DNA from: Patescibacteria group bacterium
Lineage (GTDB): Bacteria; Patescibacteriota; Doudnabacteria; UBA920
Reading direction: 5' to 3'
NCBI GenBank assembly: GCA_023484515.1
Contig: JAMDAY010000007.1
Location: forward strand, 50,179 to 114,178
Length of the DNA stretch: 64,000 nucleotides
Below, in pieces: positions 15,439-62,156 of the stretch (positions within the stretch are counted from its first letter, which is position 1; each line of letters opens with the position of its first letter). The notes beneath the pieces were generated by a model, which worked only from the letters and a program-made list of their open reading frames with translations, searched no databases and had not been told where the DNA came from. A program made the translations under genes and the position numbers.

Positions 15439-15600
15439 GGGTCTGTTGCCGAATGCCATTTTGGCTGCAATTTTAGAATTTCGGCATCTTGGCCAAAAAA
15501 TTTTTTCCCCTTAGCCTACGGCTAAACATCAAAAATTATTTTAGCCAATCTGCTCGGAATTCTGAAATTTCGCCTTAAAAGCGCATTCGGCAGCAGACCC
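15439..15600. mobile_element. 162-bp MITE-like element, copy 1 (terminal inverted repeats GGGTCTGTTGCCGAATGC / GCATTCGGCAGCAGACCC)
   Basis: Near-identical second copy at 61969-62130; internal TTAGCC-TAC-GGCTAA hairpin; TTAAC/TTAAT-like flanks. Confidence 0.7.
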
Positions 15601-21818: not shown

Positions 21819-21902
21819 TGTAGTTAGCTGATTTATCACGGTCGTTCGCGAACGACGTGATTTATCAGCTGTTATTAACAGCCCATAAATGGGCTAACTA
21901 CA
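21819..21902. mobile_element. 'TGTAGTTAGC...GCTAACTACA' palindromic element, copy A, carrying a nested 19-nt palindromic insert flanked by a TGATTTATCA duplication
   Basis: Aligned by eye to the copies at 60129-60184 and 24204-24261. Confidence 0.65.
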
Positions 21903-21935
21903 TCTTAAATCTTAAATCCTAAATCTTAAATCTTT
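21903..21935. repeat. heptamer tandem repeat (CTTAAAT)x5 abutting the carA stop codon
   Basis: Read directly; a related TTTAGGATTTAAGATTT motif occurs at the pyrE 3' end (25484-25505). Confidence 0.6.
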
Positions 21936-23101
21936 TTAAGGAACTCATCAAACAGCCACCCGGTATCCAACGGCCCCGGATGCGCTTCGGGATGGAATTG
22001 AACGGACATAAACGGCAGTTTGTTATGGATAATGCCTTCGTTGGTCTTGTCGTTGGCGTTGTAAAACCACTGTTTAAAGCCTTTGGGAATTTTTTTAATG
22101 GCGAAACCGTGGTTCTGGGTGGTTAAATAGCATTTGTTCGTGCCCTGCAAAACACACGGCTGGTTCTGGCCGCGATGCCCATACTTTAGCTTATAAGTAT
22201 CACCATCGGCTGCTAAAGCTAGAATTTGATTGCCTAAACAAATACCAAATGTCGGGATCTTTTTGGCCAGTAGATATTTTACGTTTTCTATGGTGGTGGT
22301 TGCCTGCTTGGGGTCGCCCGGGCCGTTGGAAATTAAGGCAGCGTCAAATTTCAGTTTTTTCAAATTGTAATCCCAAGGCACTACCACGACTTTTACGTTG
22401 CGCTTGACCAATTCGCGCACAATGTTTTGCTTAAGGCCGCAGTCAATAACCACAACCGTCTTTTTGCCCGAACCCGCGCGGTAAACTTTTTTCGTGGAAA
22501 CTTTGGCGGCTAAATTTTCAAGGTTGGGGTCTTTGAATTCTGTCATTGCCAGGCCGCCTTGCCCGCCGAAGCCTTGGCGGAGGAGGGGGTTTTGTCCGGC
22601 CGACCGAAGATACGCCGAAGCCTTGGCGAAGGTGGACGAAGCAATCTTCTCCTGTGATAGATTGCTTCGCTCGGATGCACTCGCTCGCAATGACACATTA
22701 TTAAATTCCATTTTCCCCAACATGACTCCATGGGTCCGCAGCTTTTGCGTAATTTCCCTGGTATCCTTAATCTCCAAAGCAGGAATGTTTTGCTTTTTCA
22801 GCCAGTCTGACAATGTCTGTTTGCTTGAATGATGCGAAGGCGTATCTATATAGCTTGATACCACTAACCCCGAAACTTGAATTTTACCAGATTCCCAATA
22901 TTTTTTCTCCGGCACGCCATAATTGCCCTGCAGGGGATAGGTTAAAACCAAAATCTGCCCGGCATAAGAGGGATCGGTCAAGCTTTCCGGATACCCGACC
23001 ATGCCCGTGGCAAATACCACTTCGCCCGCCATGGGCTTTTCTTTGCCAAAACTTTTACCAACGTATTCGCTGCCGTCTTTTAAAATAAGGTTGCCGATCA
23101 T
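21926..23101 (-). CDS. carA: carbamoyl-phosphate synthase small subunit; the linker carries an in-frame palindromic-element insertion
   Basis: CarA N-domain plus class-I GATase (GICLGNQ, HPE) with about 45 extra low-complexity residues in the linker, encoded by the 22541-22695 element. Confidence 0.9.
   Translation of the reverse strand: MIGNLILKDGSEYVGKSFGKEKPMAGEVVFATGMVGYPESLTDPSYAGQILVLTYPLQGNYGVPEKKYWESGKIQVSGLVVSSYIDTPSHHSSKQTLSDWLKKQNIPALEIKDTREITQKLRTHGVMLGKMEFNNVSLRASASERSNLSQEKIASSTFAKASAYLRSAGQNPLLRQGFGGQGGLAMTEFKDPNLENLAAKVSTKKVYRAGSGKKTVVVIDCGLKQNIVRELVKRNVKVVVVPWDYNLKKLKFDAALISNGPGDPKQATTTIENVKYLLAKKIPTFGICLGNQILALAADGDTYKLKYGHRGQNQPCVLQGTNKCYLTTQNHGFAIKKIPKGFKQWFYNANDKTNEGIIHNKLPFMSVQFHPEAHPGPLDTGWLFDEFLKKI
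22541..22695. mobile_element. 'TGTCATTGC...GCAATGACA' palindromic element inserted in-frame in carA
   Basis: Terminal inverted repeats, internal CGAAGCAATC...GATTGCTTCG hairpin and GCCGAAGCCTTGGCG direct repeats; homologous copy in rsmI. Confidence 0.7.
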
Positions 23102-37865: not shown

Positions 37866-37990
37866 CCGGTAATTCTTATCCCCTGAAGGCGCCCTTCGGG
37901 GATAAGTATTCTTAAGATAGCTTGATAATGGCCATTGCCTGATAATCTAAACCCGTTTGTCCCGGAAGGGCGCCTTCAGGGAAAACAGCC
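37866..37990. promoter_or_regulatory. pair of related perfect palindromes (CTTATCCCCGAAGGCGCCCTTCGGGGATAAG and CCCTGAAGGCGCCCTTCCGGG) upstream of the glycine-rich peptide gene
   Basis: Read directly; possible operator or attenuator sites. Confidence 0.4.
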
Positions 37991-44987: not shown

Positions 44988-45063
44988 TGGTGGGCGCGGA
45001 AGGACTCGAACCTTCGACCAATCGTGTATAAGACGATCGCTCTACCAACTGAGCTACGCGCCC
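44988..45063 (-). tRNA. tRNA-Ile (anticodon TAT, i.e. UAU), CCA encoded
   Basis: Acceptor GGGCGCG/CGCGCCC, D-loop AGTTGGTA, anticodon stem ATCGT/ACGAT with loop CTTATAC, T-arm GAAGG-TTCGAGT-CCTTC. Confidence 0.8.
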
Positions 45064-49578: not shown

Positions 49579-50712
49579 ATGAACAACAAAATTGAAAATG
49601 CTTCTCCGGATGCAAAAAGAGAATTGGAAATACCCAAACTTATACTGGCAGGCATGCCAGACTACTTTATTGCACGGGAAGGAAAAGAGGCTTGGAAAGA
49701 TGACAGTCATCCAGTTTATTTAATGATGAATTTGGATACCAAATGCAGTTGCAATTGTATAAAGTGTGCTTTACATGGCCGTAAGCGCGAGCCGGGCCCT
49801 CCTTTGACTACTCAAGAACGGACAGCTTTTCTAGACCAAAATACAGCTACGCTAGGCTTAAAAGAACTAGTAATAATCGGTTACGGCGAACCGACCGAAG
49901 ATTTTGGCAAAGTAGAACCCCTCATTCGCGAAGCTCATAGCCAAGGCATGGGAACAGTAATCTTTTCAAACCTGGGATTCCTTACTAAAGAACAAGCCGA
50001 ATTTTTTAGAGACCATGAAGTTACATTAATTGTAAGCTTAGATGCGGTTGATGAAAATACCTATAACTTCCTGATTGATCCCAATAAAAGAAAGGGTATG
50101 GACCTTAATAAAGTCTTAAAAAATCTTGAATTATTAAAAGAAACATACAGACAAAATAATAAAACTATAAACGAGCAAAAAGTGGTTAGGCTGGGAATTA
50201 ACACCACTGTCTGTAAACAAAATGTTGATCATTTAGAAGAAATAAAGCAACTGGTTGGAAGAGATATGATGTACATAGCCAACCCTCCAATGCGTGAAGG
50301 CAATTTAACGCAAAAAGATCGGTGGAACATCTTAGTTGGAAATCAATATGATTATTTGGCCAAGAGAGCGGCTGAGGTTTCCCAAACAGGGGGTCACAGC
50401 TCTTTGGCCGAAGGTTCTTGCAGTTATTTTAATCGGGGACTTTCCGTAGATTCCGATGGAGAACTTTTAACTTGTGGTTATGCGGTAAATACTGCCCACT
50501 CCATTGGAAATATTAAAGATAACTTATCGCCGCAACAGTTAAAGAACATTTACCGGAAAAACCGTGAAGTCTTTGAAAAATACAGGCAGGAGACCGGAGA
50601 CGAGCAGGCGACTTGCCCATTAAGGAGTAAAAATTTTGAGGATTATTGCCGAAGAATAGCCTCGGCACATAGCAAAAGGCAAAAAGAAAATCCATTTAAT
50701 ATTTTAGAATAA
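49579..50712 (+). CDS. radical SAM enzyme with C-terminal SPASM/twitch-like Cys-rich domain
   Basis: CxxxCxxC motif CSCNCIKC, GYGEPT glycine-rich SAM motif, C-terminal cysteines (CSYF...LTCGY...ATCPL...DYC). Confidence 0.8.
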   Translation: MNNKIENASPDAKRELEIPKLILAGMPDYFIAREGKEAWKDDSHPVYLMMNLDTKCSCNCIKCALHGRKREPGPPLTTQERTAFLDQNTATLGLKELVIIGYGEPTEDFGKVEPLIREAHSQGMGTVIFSNLGFLTKEQAEFFRDHEVTLIVSLDAVDENTYNFLIDPNKRKGMDLNKVLKNLELLKETYRQNNKTINEQKVVRLGINTTVCKQNVDHLEEIKQLVGRDMMYIANPPMREGNLTQKDRWNILVGNQYDYLAKRAAEVSQTGGHSSLAEGSCSYFNRGLSVDSDGELLTCGYAVNTAHSIGNIKDNLSPQQLKNIYRKNREVFEKYRQETGDEQATCPLRSKNFEDYCRRIASAHSKRQKENPFNILE

Positions 50713-50715
50713 TTT

Positions 50716-51492
50716 ATGCTTTACGTTGTCGCCACGCCCATTGGGAACTTAAAAGATATAACTTTGCGGGCCATTGAGACTTTAAAGGCCTGCGATTTTG
50801 TAATTGCGGAAAATCCGGGGTATAGCAGGAGGCTGTTGCAACACATCGCAAACACCAGTGTCATTGCGAGGCCGAATGCATCTGAGGCCGAAGCAATCTA
50901 TCCATCTGACAGTAAGATTGCTTCGCCGTCCGGCCAAAGCCCCGAACGGCTCGCAATGACATCTAAGAAAGAGATTGTCCAATTTGCGGAATTTAACGAA
51001 CAGCAGGTGGTCAAAGAATTGGCTAGACGATTAATAAAAGAAAACGGATGCCTTATCACCGACGCCGGCACGCCTGGCATTTCCGACCCCGGATTCAGGC
51101 TGGTGAGGGAATGTATAAAAAACAACATCGAGATTGTGCCAATCCCCGGCGCCAGCGCCGCAATTACCGCCTTGTCAGCAAGCGGTTTGCCCACGGACAG
51201 GTTTTTATTCCTGGGCTTTTTGCAAAAGACCGCGGCCAAAACCTTGAAAGCCTTAAAAGACGCCGAACAAGCTGAAGCCACGGCCATATTTTACGAATCC
51301 CCGGAAAGAATTTTCAAGACCATGAGTTACATTGCCAACGCCTTCCCGTCTTCCCAAGTCGTTATCGCGCGCGAACTAACCAAACTCCACGAAGAATTCA
51401 TCCGCGGCAGCGCGGGGGAAGTGCTGGAAAAGCTGAAAGAAAGAACCTCAATAAAAGGAGAATTTACAGTCCTTGTATCATTTAAAAATTAA
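50716..51492 (+). CDS. rsmI: 16S rRNA (cytidine1402-2'-O)-methyltransferase RsmI carrying an in-frame palindromic-element insertion
   Basis: MLYVVATPIGNLKDITLRAIETL N-terminus and DAGTPGISDPGFRLV motif; about 37 extra residues between LLQH and NEQQ encoded by the 50859-50961 element. Confidence 0.8.
   Translation: MLYVVATPIGNLKDITLRAIETLKACDFVIAENPGYSRRLLQHIANTSVIARPNASEAEAIYPSDSKIASPSGQSPERLAMTSKKEIVQFAEFNEQQVVKELARRLIKENGCLITDAGTPGISDPGFRLVRECIKNNIEIVPIPGASAAITALSASGLPTDRFLFLGFLQKTAAKTLKALKDAEQAEATAIFYESPERIFKTMSYIANAFPSSQVVIARELTKLHEEFIRGSAGEVLEKLKERTSIKGEFTVLVSFKN
50859..50961. mobile_element. 'TGTCATTGC...GCAATGACA' palindromic element inserted in-frame in rsmI
   Basis: Shares TIRs, the CGAAGCAATC/GATTGCTTCG inner hairpin and GTCCGGCC with the carA copy; same orientation relative to the host reading frame. 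Confidence 0.7.
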
Positions 51493-51515: not shown

Positions 51516-51884
51516 ATGAAACCGGAGGATTTGCAAAAAAGGACCAAAAAATTTGCAATTAGGGTAATTAAATTCGCTCAATTTCTTGAAACGAAAGGAA
51601 TTGTTGGGGTAGTAATCGCAAAACAATTATTACGCGCAGCTACCTCGGTTGCGGCGAATTATCGAGCAGTTTGCCGAGCCAAATCTGGAAAAGATTTTGT
51701 TAATAAATTAGGGATAGTTGTTGAAGAGGCTGACGAAACGCAATTTTGGCTGGAATTAGCGGTAGAGTCAGGATTGGTGGAAACGAGTATGATTCAAGAC
51801 CTGCTTAAAGAAGCTACGGAGGTTACAGCCATCATGCAGGCATCAAAGTCGTCGGCTATTCGCAATCACGTAGGGAAAAAATAA
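51516..51884 (+). CDS. four-helix-bundle protein (TIGR02436 / 23S rRNA-IVS protein family)
   Basis: KDFVNKLGIVVEEADETQFWLEL signature. Confidence 0.6.
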   Translation: MKPEDLQKRTKKFAIRVIKFAQFLETKGIVGVVIAKQLLRAATSVAANYRAVCRAKSGKDFVNKLGIVVEEADETQFWLELAVESGLVETSMIQDLLKEATEVTAIMQASKSSAIRNHVGKK

Positions 51885-59927: not shown

Positions 59928-60128
59928 TCCTCCTTCTCCTTTCGCGTATCCCCGCCGGGTGTTTTTGTTTTAACGGAGAAGAATAGCAAAAAATAGATAT
60001 ATTGACAATTGAATTCCACTTATAATATAATATATTTAGCCTTAAGTAAGGCTTTTTTATTTCTTTTGATTAGATTTGTCAGAATAGGTTGACACTTGTT
60101 CGCTGACAAATCGACACGCTACAATAGT

Positions 60129-60184
60129 TGTAGTTAGCCCATTTATGGGCTGTCCTTTAACAGCTGATAAATCAGCTAACTACA
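60129..60184. mobile_element. 'TGTAGTTAGC...GCTAACTACA' palindromic element, canonical 56-bp copy B
   Basis: TIRs plus two perfect sub-hairpins (GCCCATTTATGGGC and AGCTGATAAATCAGCT). Confidence 0.7.
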
Positions 60185-60293
60185 ATTACTGCACCCTCTC
60201 TGTCACCCGAAGGGTGACATCTCCCCTAAGGGGGAGGGTTCCGCAGTTTCCGCGATCCGTGTTCATCCGTAATCTATCCGTATTAATCATCCA

Positions 60294-61093: not shown

Positions 61094-61967
61094 ATGCATA
61101 TTCCGATAAAAAAACTTAAAAACGGGTTTGAGATGCCGGGGTTTGGTATGGGAACTTATAAAATGGGAGAAGAAAACCGGGATCAAGACGATATAAACAC
61201 CATTAAAGCCGCAATTGATTTAGGCATTACCCATATTGACACCGCAGAGGCCTATGCTGACGGCAGTGCCGAAGAAATAGTCGGCAAGGCCATAAAAGGC
61301 CGCGTGCGTTCAGGCCTGTTCATTGTTTCCAAGGTCCAGGAAAGCCATTTAAATTACCAAGAAACCAAAACCGCTTTGCACCGCGTTTAAAAAGATTAGA
61401 AACCGGCTATCTTGACTTATACCTATTGCATCGCTATCCAGGCAGCGACAGCAAGCTGAAAGAATGCTTAAAAGCACTGGCAGAATTAAAAGACGAAAAC
61501 CTCATAAAAAATATTGGAATCAGCAACTTTAACCTGGAACATACCAAGCAGGCCTGCGAATGGTCCAAATACCCGGTGGTTGCTACCCAAGTCCACTACA
61601 ACTTGCAATTCCGCGAACCTGAAAAAACCGATTTGCTGGATTTTTGCCAAAATAATGACATAATGTTAATCGCCTGGCGGCCTGTAAATAAAGCATATCA
61701 AGCAAAAAATAAAATCAACTTCACCAAACCGGGTATTCCCGTTTTGGATGAAATTAGCAAAGAATATAAAAAGCCCCCTCCCAGGTTGCCATCAACTGGC
61801 TTATTTCGCAACCGAATGTGGTGACTTTAGTTAAAACCTCTAATCTTAATCATTTACGGGAAAATCTGGGAGCTATTGGCTGGCAAATGAGCGCTGGCGA
61901 TATAGAAAAAATACGAAAGGGATTTCCAAACCAGCAGCCTGTTTCAGATACCGTGCCTTTAGCTTAA
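61094..61967 (+). pseudogene. aldo-keto reductase gene with two -1 frameshifts, both in homopolymers (near 61383-61388 in a T/A run; near 61787-61792 in a C5 run)
   Basis: Three frames each carry consecutive AKR segments, including TALHRV|LKRLETGYLDLYLLH and EYKKP|PAQVAINWLISQPNVV...; AAGGAGG RBS. Confidence 0.7.
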
Positions 61968-61968
61968 T

Positions 61969-62130
61969 GGGTCTGTTGCCGAATGCTATTTTGGCTGCAA
62001 TTTTAGAATTTCGGCATCTTGGCCAAAAAATTTTTTCTTCTTAGCCTGCGGCTAAACATCAAAAATTATTTTGACCAAGCTGCTCGGAATTCTGAAATTT
62101 CGCCTTAAAAGCGCATTCGGCAGCAGACCC
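61969..62130. mobile_element. 162-bp MITE-like element, copy 2
   Basis: About 95% identical by eye to 15439-15600; starts 1 nt after the AKR stop codon within the GCTTAATGGG context. Confidence 0.7.
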
Positions 62131-62156
62131 TTAACGCACTATTTACTTTTATTATC

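Follow-up and report, generated by a model that had tools for sequence, protein, structure and literature searches.

An in-frame palindromic repeat in a Patescibacteria rsmI gene and its pan-bacterial family, whose units also bracket GIY-YIG nuclease genes

The palindromic element of rsmI and its copy in carA

The DNA analysed here, a stretch of 64,000 nucleotides from an uncultured Patescibacteria bacterium that we call the window, carries rsmI, the gene of the 16S rRNA C1402 2'-O-methyltransferase, and inside this gene lies, in frame, the palindromic element of 103 nt that is the subject of this work. A preliminary description had placed the element between the RLLQH and NEQQ motifs of the protein, and its sequence, its coordinates and the open reading frame (ORF) agree with that description. 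The features of the locus, and those of a second copy of the element in carA, are the following.

50716-51492, plus strand: rsmI, 16S rRNA C1402 2'-O-methyltransferase, 258 aa, with the insert at about residues 48-84 (identified by TIGR00096)
50859-50961, plus strand: whole palindromic element, two inverted (T)GTC-tagged units forming a dimer without a gene (arms; fold z = -5.7)
50859-50870, plus strand: left outer arm TGTCATTGCGAG, that is, the tag TGTC followed by ATTGCGAG; no fewer than 120 genomes have this outer motif
50871-50888, plus strand: left variable side arm GCCGAATGCATCTGAGGC, with the subfamily marker GA(A/G)TGCATC(T/C)GAG, common to the carA copy and the rsmI orthologs
50889-50899, plus strand: left inner arm CGAAGCAATCT (complementarity; exact 11-mer search)
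50900-50914, plus strand: central loop ATCCATCTGACAGTA, 15 nt, the position occupied by a GIY-YIG gene in full-length relatives
50915-50925, plus strand: right inner arm AGATTGCTTCG (complementarity; exact 11-mer search)
50926-50949, plus strand: right side arm CCGTCCGGCCAAAGCCCCGAACGG, replaced relative to the TCGGATGCACTC of the orthologs and resembling the carA mini-hairpin GCCAAGGCTTCGG
50950-50961, plus strand: right outer arm CTCGCAATGACA (complementarity to the left outer arm)
22541-22695, minus strand: second copy of the element, 155 nt, in frame in carA (11-mer search; alignment)
21926-23101, minus strand: carA, carbamoyl-phosphate synthase small subunit, 391 aa, which passes the equivalog model with the insert

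The outer arms TGTCATTGCGAG and CTCGCAATGACA are 12 nt long and 100% complementary, with the tags TGTC at 50859-50862 and GACA at 50958-50961, and the inner 11-nt arms CGAAGCAATCT and AGATTGCTTCG are comprised within a 16-nt pair which is 88% complementary. Folded as RNA, the element forms three arms closed by the outer stem, with an energy of -49.4 kcal/mol against -27.6 +/- 3.8 for 200 shuffled sequences (z = -5.7), none of which was as good. The 11-mer GTCATTGCGAG, searched with at most one mismatch, matches the window four times where 0.61 matches are expected, and all four are arms of the rsmI and carA copies; the inner 11-mer is found exactly at these two elements only, and neither tag pairs nor peptide signatures revealed further copies in the 64 kb. 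The rsmI element is a real, non-random palindrome, made of two inverted units of about 35-45 nt joined tail to tail, and is in this comparable to a REPIN (an inverted doublet of repetitive extragenic palindromic sequences, or REPs) or to a MITE (miniature inverted-repeat transposable element). Over the window, the gathering scores of Rfam 15 were reached by tRNAs alone, and the best match to 50780-51040 at permissive thresholds had E = 0.43 and 14.7 bits for a gathering score of 55. The plasmids of PLSDB gave no blastn match to the element.

With the insert present, the ORF passes the NCBIfam equivalog model of RsmI, TIGR00096 (223.7 bits for a cut-off of 167.9), and the translation of the element in the rsmI frame, VIARPNASEAEAIYPSDSKIASPSGQSPERLAMT, is free of stop codons. 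From RLL.. to ..NE, the RsmI of the window has 57 residues against 21 in the insert-free orthologs, which sets the insert at 36 residues, close to the 37 or so that had been proposed. Residues 4-47 and 56-222 of E. coli RsmI (5HW4) align with residues 2-45 and 91-254 of the query and leave eight residues unaligned at the site. The identical protein (P0001, 100%) is found in an NCBI record from a Patescibacteria metagenome-assembled genome (MAG) and in an independent Logan assembly, and the insert is therefore no assembly artefact. The insertion site would lie in the N-terminal domain of RsmI, at the turn that links helix 2 to strand 3. An AlphaFold2 model that drew on 118 sequences gives residues 49-81 a predicted local distance difference test (pLDDT) value below 50 and residues 47-75 no secondary structure, and RsmI structures are still the best Foldseek matches of the model (E = 1e-20). 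The insert would be tolerated because the conserved cores of the repeat are almost stop-free and because additional residues can be accommodated at the site. With no known benefit, the insert is best viewed as a passenger or as selfish DNA.

The rsmI and carA copies belong to one family, as had been proposed: they align with a column identity of 71% on the coding strands and share the left arm. With one copy reversed the identity is 67%, a small gap because the element is palindromic, and the asymmetric marker GA(A/G)TGCATC(T/C)GAG, found 5' of the inner arm in both copies, further supports the co-orientation relative to the coding strands that the preliminary description had noted. The proposal that selection favoured an orientation free of stops fails, since as many frames are open in one orientation as in the other by six-frame translation (one of three in each orientation for the rsmI element, two of three in each for the carA element); moreover, two copies sharing an orientation are a 1-in-2 event, and the reading frames differ on the 5' side (VIAR.. 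in rsmI, SLRA.. in carA) and agree on the 3' side (..LAMT). The cores GTCATTGCGAG, CGAAGCAATCT and AGATTGCTTCG are stop-free in all frames, and ..AATGAC alone yields one frame with TGA. The carA copy is 52 nt longer than the rsmI copy and contains twice the mini-hairpin CGCCAAGGCTTCGGCG (22564-22579 and 22613-22628); a related motif, GGCCAAAGCCCCG, stands in the rsmI copy in place of the right side arm. Outside the window, a gammaproteobacterial MAG (L025, 4466-4543) holds a ATTGCGAG element that is in frame with guaA (GMP synthase amidotransferase domain) and encodes DVIARPRSGAAISKNSEIASEGAPRNDDG. The class-I amidotransferase fold is common to carA and guaA.

A pan-bacterial repeat family and the GIY-YIG genes between its units

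The motif pair GTCATTGCGAG-N8-38-CGAAGCAATCT, scanned in one genome per species, was found exactly at no fewer than 120 genome loci, where about 2 would be expected by chance according to our own estimate (596 Gb x 2 strands x 31 spacings / 4^22). The loci listed belong to the Chloroflexota, Bacteroidota (Pedobacter, Flavobacterium, Chryseobacterium), Desulfobacterota, Planctomycetota, Omnitrophota, Ignavibacteriota, Atribacterota and Cyanobacteria, to several Patescibacteria, to Tisiphia and to other groups. Among the matches listed, the conserved blocks enclose 126 distinct variable regions, mostly small hairpins such as GA-CCCTCCG-ATT-CGGAGGG-GA or CCGCC-AAC-GGCGG, with a minimum free energy per nucleotide of -0.19 against -0.07 for shuffled sequences and stems of at least 5 bp in 25% of cases against 7% of shuffles. 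The unit thus begins with a tag (T/C)GTC and a half-stem ATTGC; GAG and CGAA then enclose a small hairpin whose sequence is free, and the second half-stem, GCAAT, and CT complete it. Exactly one forward and one reverse tag, that is, a dimer, are present in 63 of the 120 loci listed, and other genomes hold arrays of units. Most of the dimers listed have no long ORF across them and are, outside Patescibacteria, mostly extragenic; a few lie within ORFs. The rsmI element is a member of this pan-bacterial family with a defined unit.

While we were seeking genes associated with the unit arrays, small GIY-YIG ORFs were met adjoining the tags. Four loci (L019, L049, L220 and L221) have the same succession of a unit, about 10-15 nt, a complete GIY-YIG ORF from its ATG to its stop codon, 1-7 nt and an inverted unit. 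In L019 (Planctomycetota) and L049 (Bacillota), the unit GTCATTGCGAG..CGAAGCAATCT is followed by 9-12 nt, an ORF of 95-96 codons starting with ATG, its stop codon, 5-7 nt and the inverted unit AGATTGCTTCG..CTCGCAATGAC. The gene is exactly in the position of the dimer loop, where the rsmI copy has its 15-nt loop. It encodes a stand-alone protein of about 95 aa, UPF0213/Slx1-like, which scores 56.8 bits with Pfam GIY-YIG (PF01541; cut-off 22.6) and whose nearest solved relative is the UPF0213 protein 1ZG2. Its close homologs number at least 8000, 70-80% identical across Cyanobacteria, Dehalococcoidia, Desulfobacteraceae, WOR-3 and KSB1, and the family comprises 14,177 clusters at 50% identity (E <= 1e-3). 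The prokaryotic stand-alone GIY-YIG proteins have been viewed as Slx1-like and vertically inherited (Dunin-Horkawicz 2006).

The association holds when the loci are picked by the protein sequence alone: ATTGCGAG units lie within 150 nt of the gene in 8 of 8 independent places, L220 and L221 having the exact form in which the gene separates two inverted units and several other such loci having arrays of gene-less dimers beside the gene. The best inverted repeat from one flank to the other averages 18 nt and reaches at least 14 nt in 10 of 20 GIY-YIG loci, against a mean of 6.4 nt and a maximum of 13 for 55 control genes of the window, none of which reaches 14. The N-terminal extensions of GIY-YIG representatives read through units, of the ATTGCGAG type (..VIARS..SDEAI..) in 12 of 36 and VIPAKAGI-, ILRFAQDD- or SFLRKQES-like in others. 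More distant homologs (40-50% identity, in PLSDB records) fall in taxa that Di Nocera et al. list as hosts of CGTC REPs, and those of Sinorhizobium, Rhizobium, Novosphingobium and Sphingobium are bracketed by the host's own CGTC-REP variant with the tags outward. The arrangement reads CGTC-ATCCTCGGG-cttga-CCCGAGGAT-CCA ... TGG-ATCCTCGGG-tcaag-CCCGAGGAT in S. meliloti, where the flanking unit is a dispersed repeat found at 397 places in 141 records, and CGTC-GCCCCGTG-cttga-CACGGGGC ... GCCCCGTG-tcaag-CACGGGGC-GACG in N. aromaticivorans. An Aeromonas homolog is bracketed by two near-matching REP variants, units of the dRS3 type lie on both sides of the N. gonorrhoeae homolog, and on plasmid AZO_p3 of Azospirillum lipoferum 4B (L229, 255106-256190) CGTC-REP dimers flank a GIY-YIG gene inserted between sufB and sufC. 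These counts show that GIY-YIG genes are bracketed by units of the super-family far more often than chance allows.

No RAYT-like (REP-associated tyrosine transposase) or other recurrent gene besides GIY-YIG was seen beside the unit arrays when translation starts were read by eye, without a domain search. Rhizobium phages gave only weak GIY-YIG matches. In the literature searched, no link of GIY-YIG to REP, RAYT, MITE, YhbQ or COG2827 was found; a description elsewhere is possible. On a Planktothrix agardhii plasmid (p1, 18450-19513), the GIY-YIG gene lies between an MmeI-type restriction-modification gene and the DISARM gene drmA, inside a defence island.

Since the GIY-YIG gene occupies exactly the dimer loop in relatives of the rsmI element, an element made of a unit, this gene and an inverted unit would be the most likely origin of the family and its mobilising agent. 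Such 'GIY-YIG REPtrons' would be the autonomous form, and the gene-less dimers would be mobilised or maintained in trans through a structure-specific cut at the hairpin or cruciform. The proposal that the nuclease mobilises or maintains the repeats draws on the analogy with RAYTs and REPINs, in which an enzyme recognises the hairpin and acts in trans on gene-less doublets; for the GIY-YIG protein this role is predicted. Could the stand-alone GIY-YIG nucleases of about 95 aa be the cognate enzymes of the whole (C/T)GTC-REP super-family, that is, of dRS3, of the alphaproteobacterial CGTC REPs, probably of RPE-4/6/7 among the Rickettsia palindromic elements (RPEs), and of the ATTGCGAG elements? 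We find this question evenly balanced. Di Nocera, De Gregorio and Rocco (2013, PMC3733652), whose super-family includes Neisseria dRS3, concluded that the CGTC REPs are without a dedicated transposase, and the GIY-YIG protein would therefore supply the missing partner. If so, a second REP-nuclease system of independent origin would stand alongside REP-RAYT.

The main rival to this step concerns what the nuclease gene does in the dimer. GIY-YIG enzymes are classic homing endonucleases, and the gene may be a free-standing homing endonuclease gene that targets the dimer centre, the gene-less dimers being 'empty alleles' that spread by another route. Its position exactly in the dimer loop and a weak similarity of the protein to TIGR01453 agree with this, as does a tandem array 3' of the gene in one locus (L225, 1100-1888), in which each 137-nt period consists of a gene-less dimer and the last ~30 nt of the ORF, as expected from repeated incomplete homing or deletion. 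However, a protein of 95 aa is a bare catalytic domain without a DNA-binding extension of the I-TevI type, the spread of the gene-less dimers is left unexplained, and each nuclease lineage is accompanied by a different, host-specific REP variant, which resembles the enzyme-substrate co-evolution of RAYT and REP. Homing is on balance a possible but rather unlikely explanation.

History of the rsmI and carA sites

The best 120 homologs of the window RsmI (67-81% identity) were taken as its orthologs. The insert is absent in 48 of them (..HIGAWP|KEMVQF..; 221-222 aa), and the remaining 72 carry 5-55 extra residues, all at one same position. The region is thus not conserved in the absence of the palindrome, a situation that the preliminary description had considered as evidence against an insertion: apart from the insert-free orthologs, those examined have palindrome-derived sequence at the site. 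A neighbour-joining tree of the RsmI cores was uninformative, being star-like at 80-88% identity, and the concordance of nearest neighbours was used instead. By this measure the presence or absence of the insert follows relatedness, with 94 of 120 nearest neighbours in agreement where permutations gave 62 on average and 81 at most; the type of insert is not clustered (21 of 72, 19.4 being expected).

Seven orthologs with a VIAR..KIAS..LAMT insert were examined at the DNA level; the element and its subfamily arms, GAGTGCATCCGA / TCGGATGCACTC, recur in all of them, which indicates a single ancestral insertion. The element would have entered rsmI long ago, in the ancestor of a clade of Doudnabacteria-like Patescibacteria, and would have been inherited vertically since then. 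The long hairpin is kept in all seven (about 84% amino-acid identity of the cores), and four arm pairs have changed on both sides among them, most clearly in L202 (TGAAATTGCGAG...CTCGCAATTTCA), where TGTCATT/AATGACA has become TGAAATT/AATTTCA and GCATCC/GGATGC has become GCAGCC/GGCTGC. The identity of the rsmI core is 0.84 for amino acids, 0.88 for codon positions 1+2 and 0.49 for position 3, and that of the insert 0.54, 0.71 and 0.56, respectively. The insert has lost the coding pattern of evolution, yet it is more conserved than synonymous sites. The persistence of the palindrome needs an explanation because the arms keep matching while the synonymous sites are nearly saturated; it may result from arm-to-arm template switching (quasi-palindrome correction), from conversion by other copies or from selection on the hairpin.

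Other units have been found at the same rsmI site: a dRS3-like unit, ATTCCCGC, in L122, a unit ATTCTGAGG...CGAAGAAT in L125, and an unrelated G/C-rich palindrome in L124; some RsmI proteins, e.g. P0015, contain two insert types in tandem. In the case of CarA, the three closest orthologs (75-67% identity) are insert-free, and palindrome-derived peptides of no fewer than four kinds occupy this loop in other, more distant lineages. The rsmI copy is old and common to orthologs, and the carA copy is missing from the three closest ones. The loops of RsmI and CarA may be permissive sites that have been colonised repeatedly, or resident repeats may attract new ones.

These observations bear on the possibility that the hairpin is kept for a host function at the site, as an mRNA structure that slows the ribosome or is cut by RNase III and so tunes RsmI, or as a protein-bound cruciform, the peptide being incidental. 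A palindrome with compensatory changes in seven orthologs whose synonymous sites are just 49% identical, and a very stable hairpin (-49 kcal/mol), are what such a function would leave. But the 48 insert-free close orthologs, the decayed sequence or palindromes of unrelated families that others have at this site, and the presence of the same element in unrelated genes (carA, guaA) and mostly between genes in other phyla speak against it, and arm-to-arm template switching, an established mechanism whose application here is our proposal, can maintain a palindrome without selection. We therefore hold a host function to be improbable.

Much less probable still is the removal or skipping of the insert, by intron-like excision, as an intein or by a ribosomal bypass of the type known from T4 gene 60 and from the 'byp' elements of mitochondria, so that the mature RsmI would lack the loop. 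Bypassed GC-rich palindromic mobile inserts are known in yeast mitochondria, and a strong hairpin bounded by a perfect 12-bp stem would suit this route. However, the insert is stop-free and its frame is kept in the window and in all orthologs examined at the DNA level despite their differing lengths, which neither excision nor bypass would need; there is no Rfam intron or ribozyme match, 36 residues are far too short for an intein and, since 103 nt is not a multiple of three, a precise removal at the arms would break the frame. Intein, intron and bypass were accordingly rejected on size, frame and absence of stops. As for an ordinary lineage-specific expansion of the RsmI loop, with the palindromy and the resemblance to carA due to coincidence or assembly, the variation of loop length at this site among methyltransferases of the same fold is outweighed by the fold (z = -5.7, 0 of 200 shuffles as stable), by exact 11-mers common to at least 120 genomes in other phyla, by the identical protein from independent assemblies and by the palindrome in seven independently assembled orthologs, so that this explanation is scarcely credible.

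The rsmI segment is probably a repeat of the REP kind with (C/T)GTC tags, non-autonomous and able to form a hairpin, which is carried as an in-frame passenger and would derive from the unit-gene-unit element proposed above. Several points weigh against this reading. The window holds just two copies of the element in 64 kb and no GIY-YIG ORF; the unit-bearing loci of Patescibacteria have no clear GIY-YIG gene, L008 giving a weak match 188 nt away; and the GIY-YIG ORFs beside rsmI in two Patescibacteria contigs (L126, 1196-1462; L202, 2244-2450), which are of a related subfamily and lie directly upstream of a 92-aa ORF and rsmI, are without ATTGCGAG units or flanking inverted repeats. Neither a target-site duplication nor a clean pair of filled and empty sites has been demonstrated, the rsmI insertion being too old, and no duplication is visible in the window or at the four gene-bearing copies. 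The unit also departs from the four published families of CGTC REPs, which have a continuous stem of 8-9 bp, a loop of 4-5 nt and a CCA tail: here the basal stem has 5 bp, the stem is split by a purine-rich internal loop (GAG/CGAA) and ends in a tip hairpin of variable length, and the window, like most loci, has CT as the tail (..GCAATCT). As regards the protein, the insert would be translated with the gene as a tolerated loop of about 36 residues, probably disordered, as the intact frame suggests; the RsmI orthologs were found by a protein search, which favours intact frames. Structural modelling had been suggested as a way to recognise a surface loop, and the low pLDDT at residues 49-81 agrees with one, while the model is of mediocre quality overall (mean pLDDT 72, predicted TM-score 0.50, TM-score 0.42 to 5HW4/9PZG): the 'surface loop' rests on the alignment and on low model confidence, not on a good model.

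The surroundings of the two genes show other features. The ORF directly 3' of rsmI (51516-51884) encodes a 23S rRNA-intervening-sequence protein (PF05635, 59.9 bits), which is also the neighbour in L204 and not in L201-L203. A radical SAM/SPASM ORF of 377 aa (49579-50712) stands between the conserved 92-aa ORF and rsmI; it is missing at that position in the syntenic loci L201-L204 and looks like a lineage-specific insertion. Two hairpin elements with the common arms TGTAGTTAGC...GCTAACTACA lie at 21819-21902, directly 3' of the carA stop codon, and at 60113-60200. Near-identical palindromic repeats of another family, about 160-176 nt long with arms GGGTCTGTTGCCGAATGC.ATTTT / AAAAGCGCATTCGGCAGCAGACCC, are present at 15439-15600 and 61962-62137, and no ORF spans either. 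An intergenic inverted repeat at 37881-37981 has 25-nt arms that are 92% complementary (CCCTGAAGGCGCCCTTCGGGGATAA...). The minus strand carries a tRNA-Ile with the anticodon TAT at 44988-45063; this tRNA is uncommon in bacteria, in which AUA is usually read by a lysidine-modified CAU tRNA.

Comparison with known repeat systems

The family has features of several known systems. Like the MITEs of the QMITE type, its dimers are small and non-autonomous, have terminal inverted repeats and are able to add residues to proteins; the QMITEs of Coxiella are said to extend or interrupt ORFs. Elements with the same ends and an internal gene also exist among the relatives of the rsmI element. In the elements described here, by contrast, no target-site duplication was seen, the ends are hairpin units and not simple inverted repeats of an insertion sequence (IS), and the proposed autonomous partner encodes a GIY-YIG nuclease and not a DDE transposase. 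The likeness to the REPIN-RAYT systems, or REPtrons, which were reportedly described by Nunvar in 2010 and by Bertels and Rainey in 2011, lies in the inverted doublet of an imperfect hairpin, in the small nuclease gene flanked by two inverted units and in the long persistence within lineages. The difference lies in the tag, which is GTAG in those systems and (C/T)GTC here, and in the enzyme, which is a HUH tyrosine transposase of the IS200/IS605 type in the one case and a GIY-YIG nuclease (PF01541) in the other.

A close parallel in the structure of the repeats is with the CGTC-REP super-family, whose members carry CGTC tags, TGTC or CCTC being accepted as well, and stems beginning with AT, occur mostly as dimers, encode 20-30 residues in their intragenic copies and include RPE-4 and RPE-6 in Rickettsia (Di Nocera 2013, PMC3733652). 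The elements described here likewise have an unpaired CGTC/TGTC tag at the outer end (CGTC or TGTC also occurring among the related loci), a stem that starts with AT, inverted dimers able to form one large hairpin and some intragenic copies. The variants of Sinorhizobium, Rhizobium and Aeromonas have the CCA tail, which is replaced by CT in the window. That paper contains the ATTGCGAG sequence neither in its text nor in its supplements, and neither the ATTGCGAG subfamily nor REPs, MITEs or palindromes in Patescibacteria or the candidate phyla radiation (CPR) were found in the literature searched, where the 11-mers gave unrelated primer matches.

A lead of broader significance came from the relatives of the element outside the window. 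A very large family of bare GIY-YIG nucleases is bracketed by repeats in many phyla, each lineage with a repeat variant of its own. Should the nuclease act on them, what spreads the repeats of the RPE and CGTC types becomes testable with a 95-residue protein and a 35-nt oligonucleotide, and so does the role of the thousands of genes annotated as 'GIY-YIG nuclease family protein'. Furthermore, particular loops of housekeeping enzymes (RsmI, CarA, GuaA) would have been colonised repeatedly by different hairpin repeats, which is relevant to the annotation and modelling of the proteins of uncultured bacteria.

With regard to protein-coding palindromes, the known case is that of the RPEs, which studies of 2000 and 2002 reportedly described as short palindromes that had entered conserved housekeeping genes in frame, at positions exposed to solvent, and were translated. 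To our knowledge, no associated gene has been reported for RPEs, whereas full-length relatives of the rsmI element have the GIY-YIG gene. As with the RPEs, the palindrome described here is in frame in conserved protein genes whose ORF is intact (rsmI and carA are stop-free and pass their equivalog models), it has an ATGAC / (C/T)GTCAT end motif, and different element groups are met at the same site of orthologs, RsmI and CarA in the present case. The sequence comparison with the RPEs covered the ATGAC motif, which is common to RPE-4/6/7 and to the family of ATTGCGAG...CGAAGCAAT with its variable tip hairpin. The hosts differ, Rickettsiales for the RPEs and Patescibacteria for the window, and the family of the rsmI element spans many phyla and is mostly extragenic outside Patescibacteria. 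Matsutani (2013, PMC3767692) reported the ATGAC motif in RPE-4/6/7 and the presence of different RPE groups or decayed inserts at one ortholog site in Rickettsia, and left undecided whether such sites reflect a hotspot or a common origin. In-frame hairpin repeats and their recurrence at one site are thus already known from Rickettsia; the element of rsmI extends protein-coding palindromes to a new phylum, the Patescibacteria with their tiny genomes, and does so with a divergent unit, ATTGCGAG.

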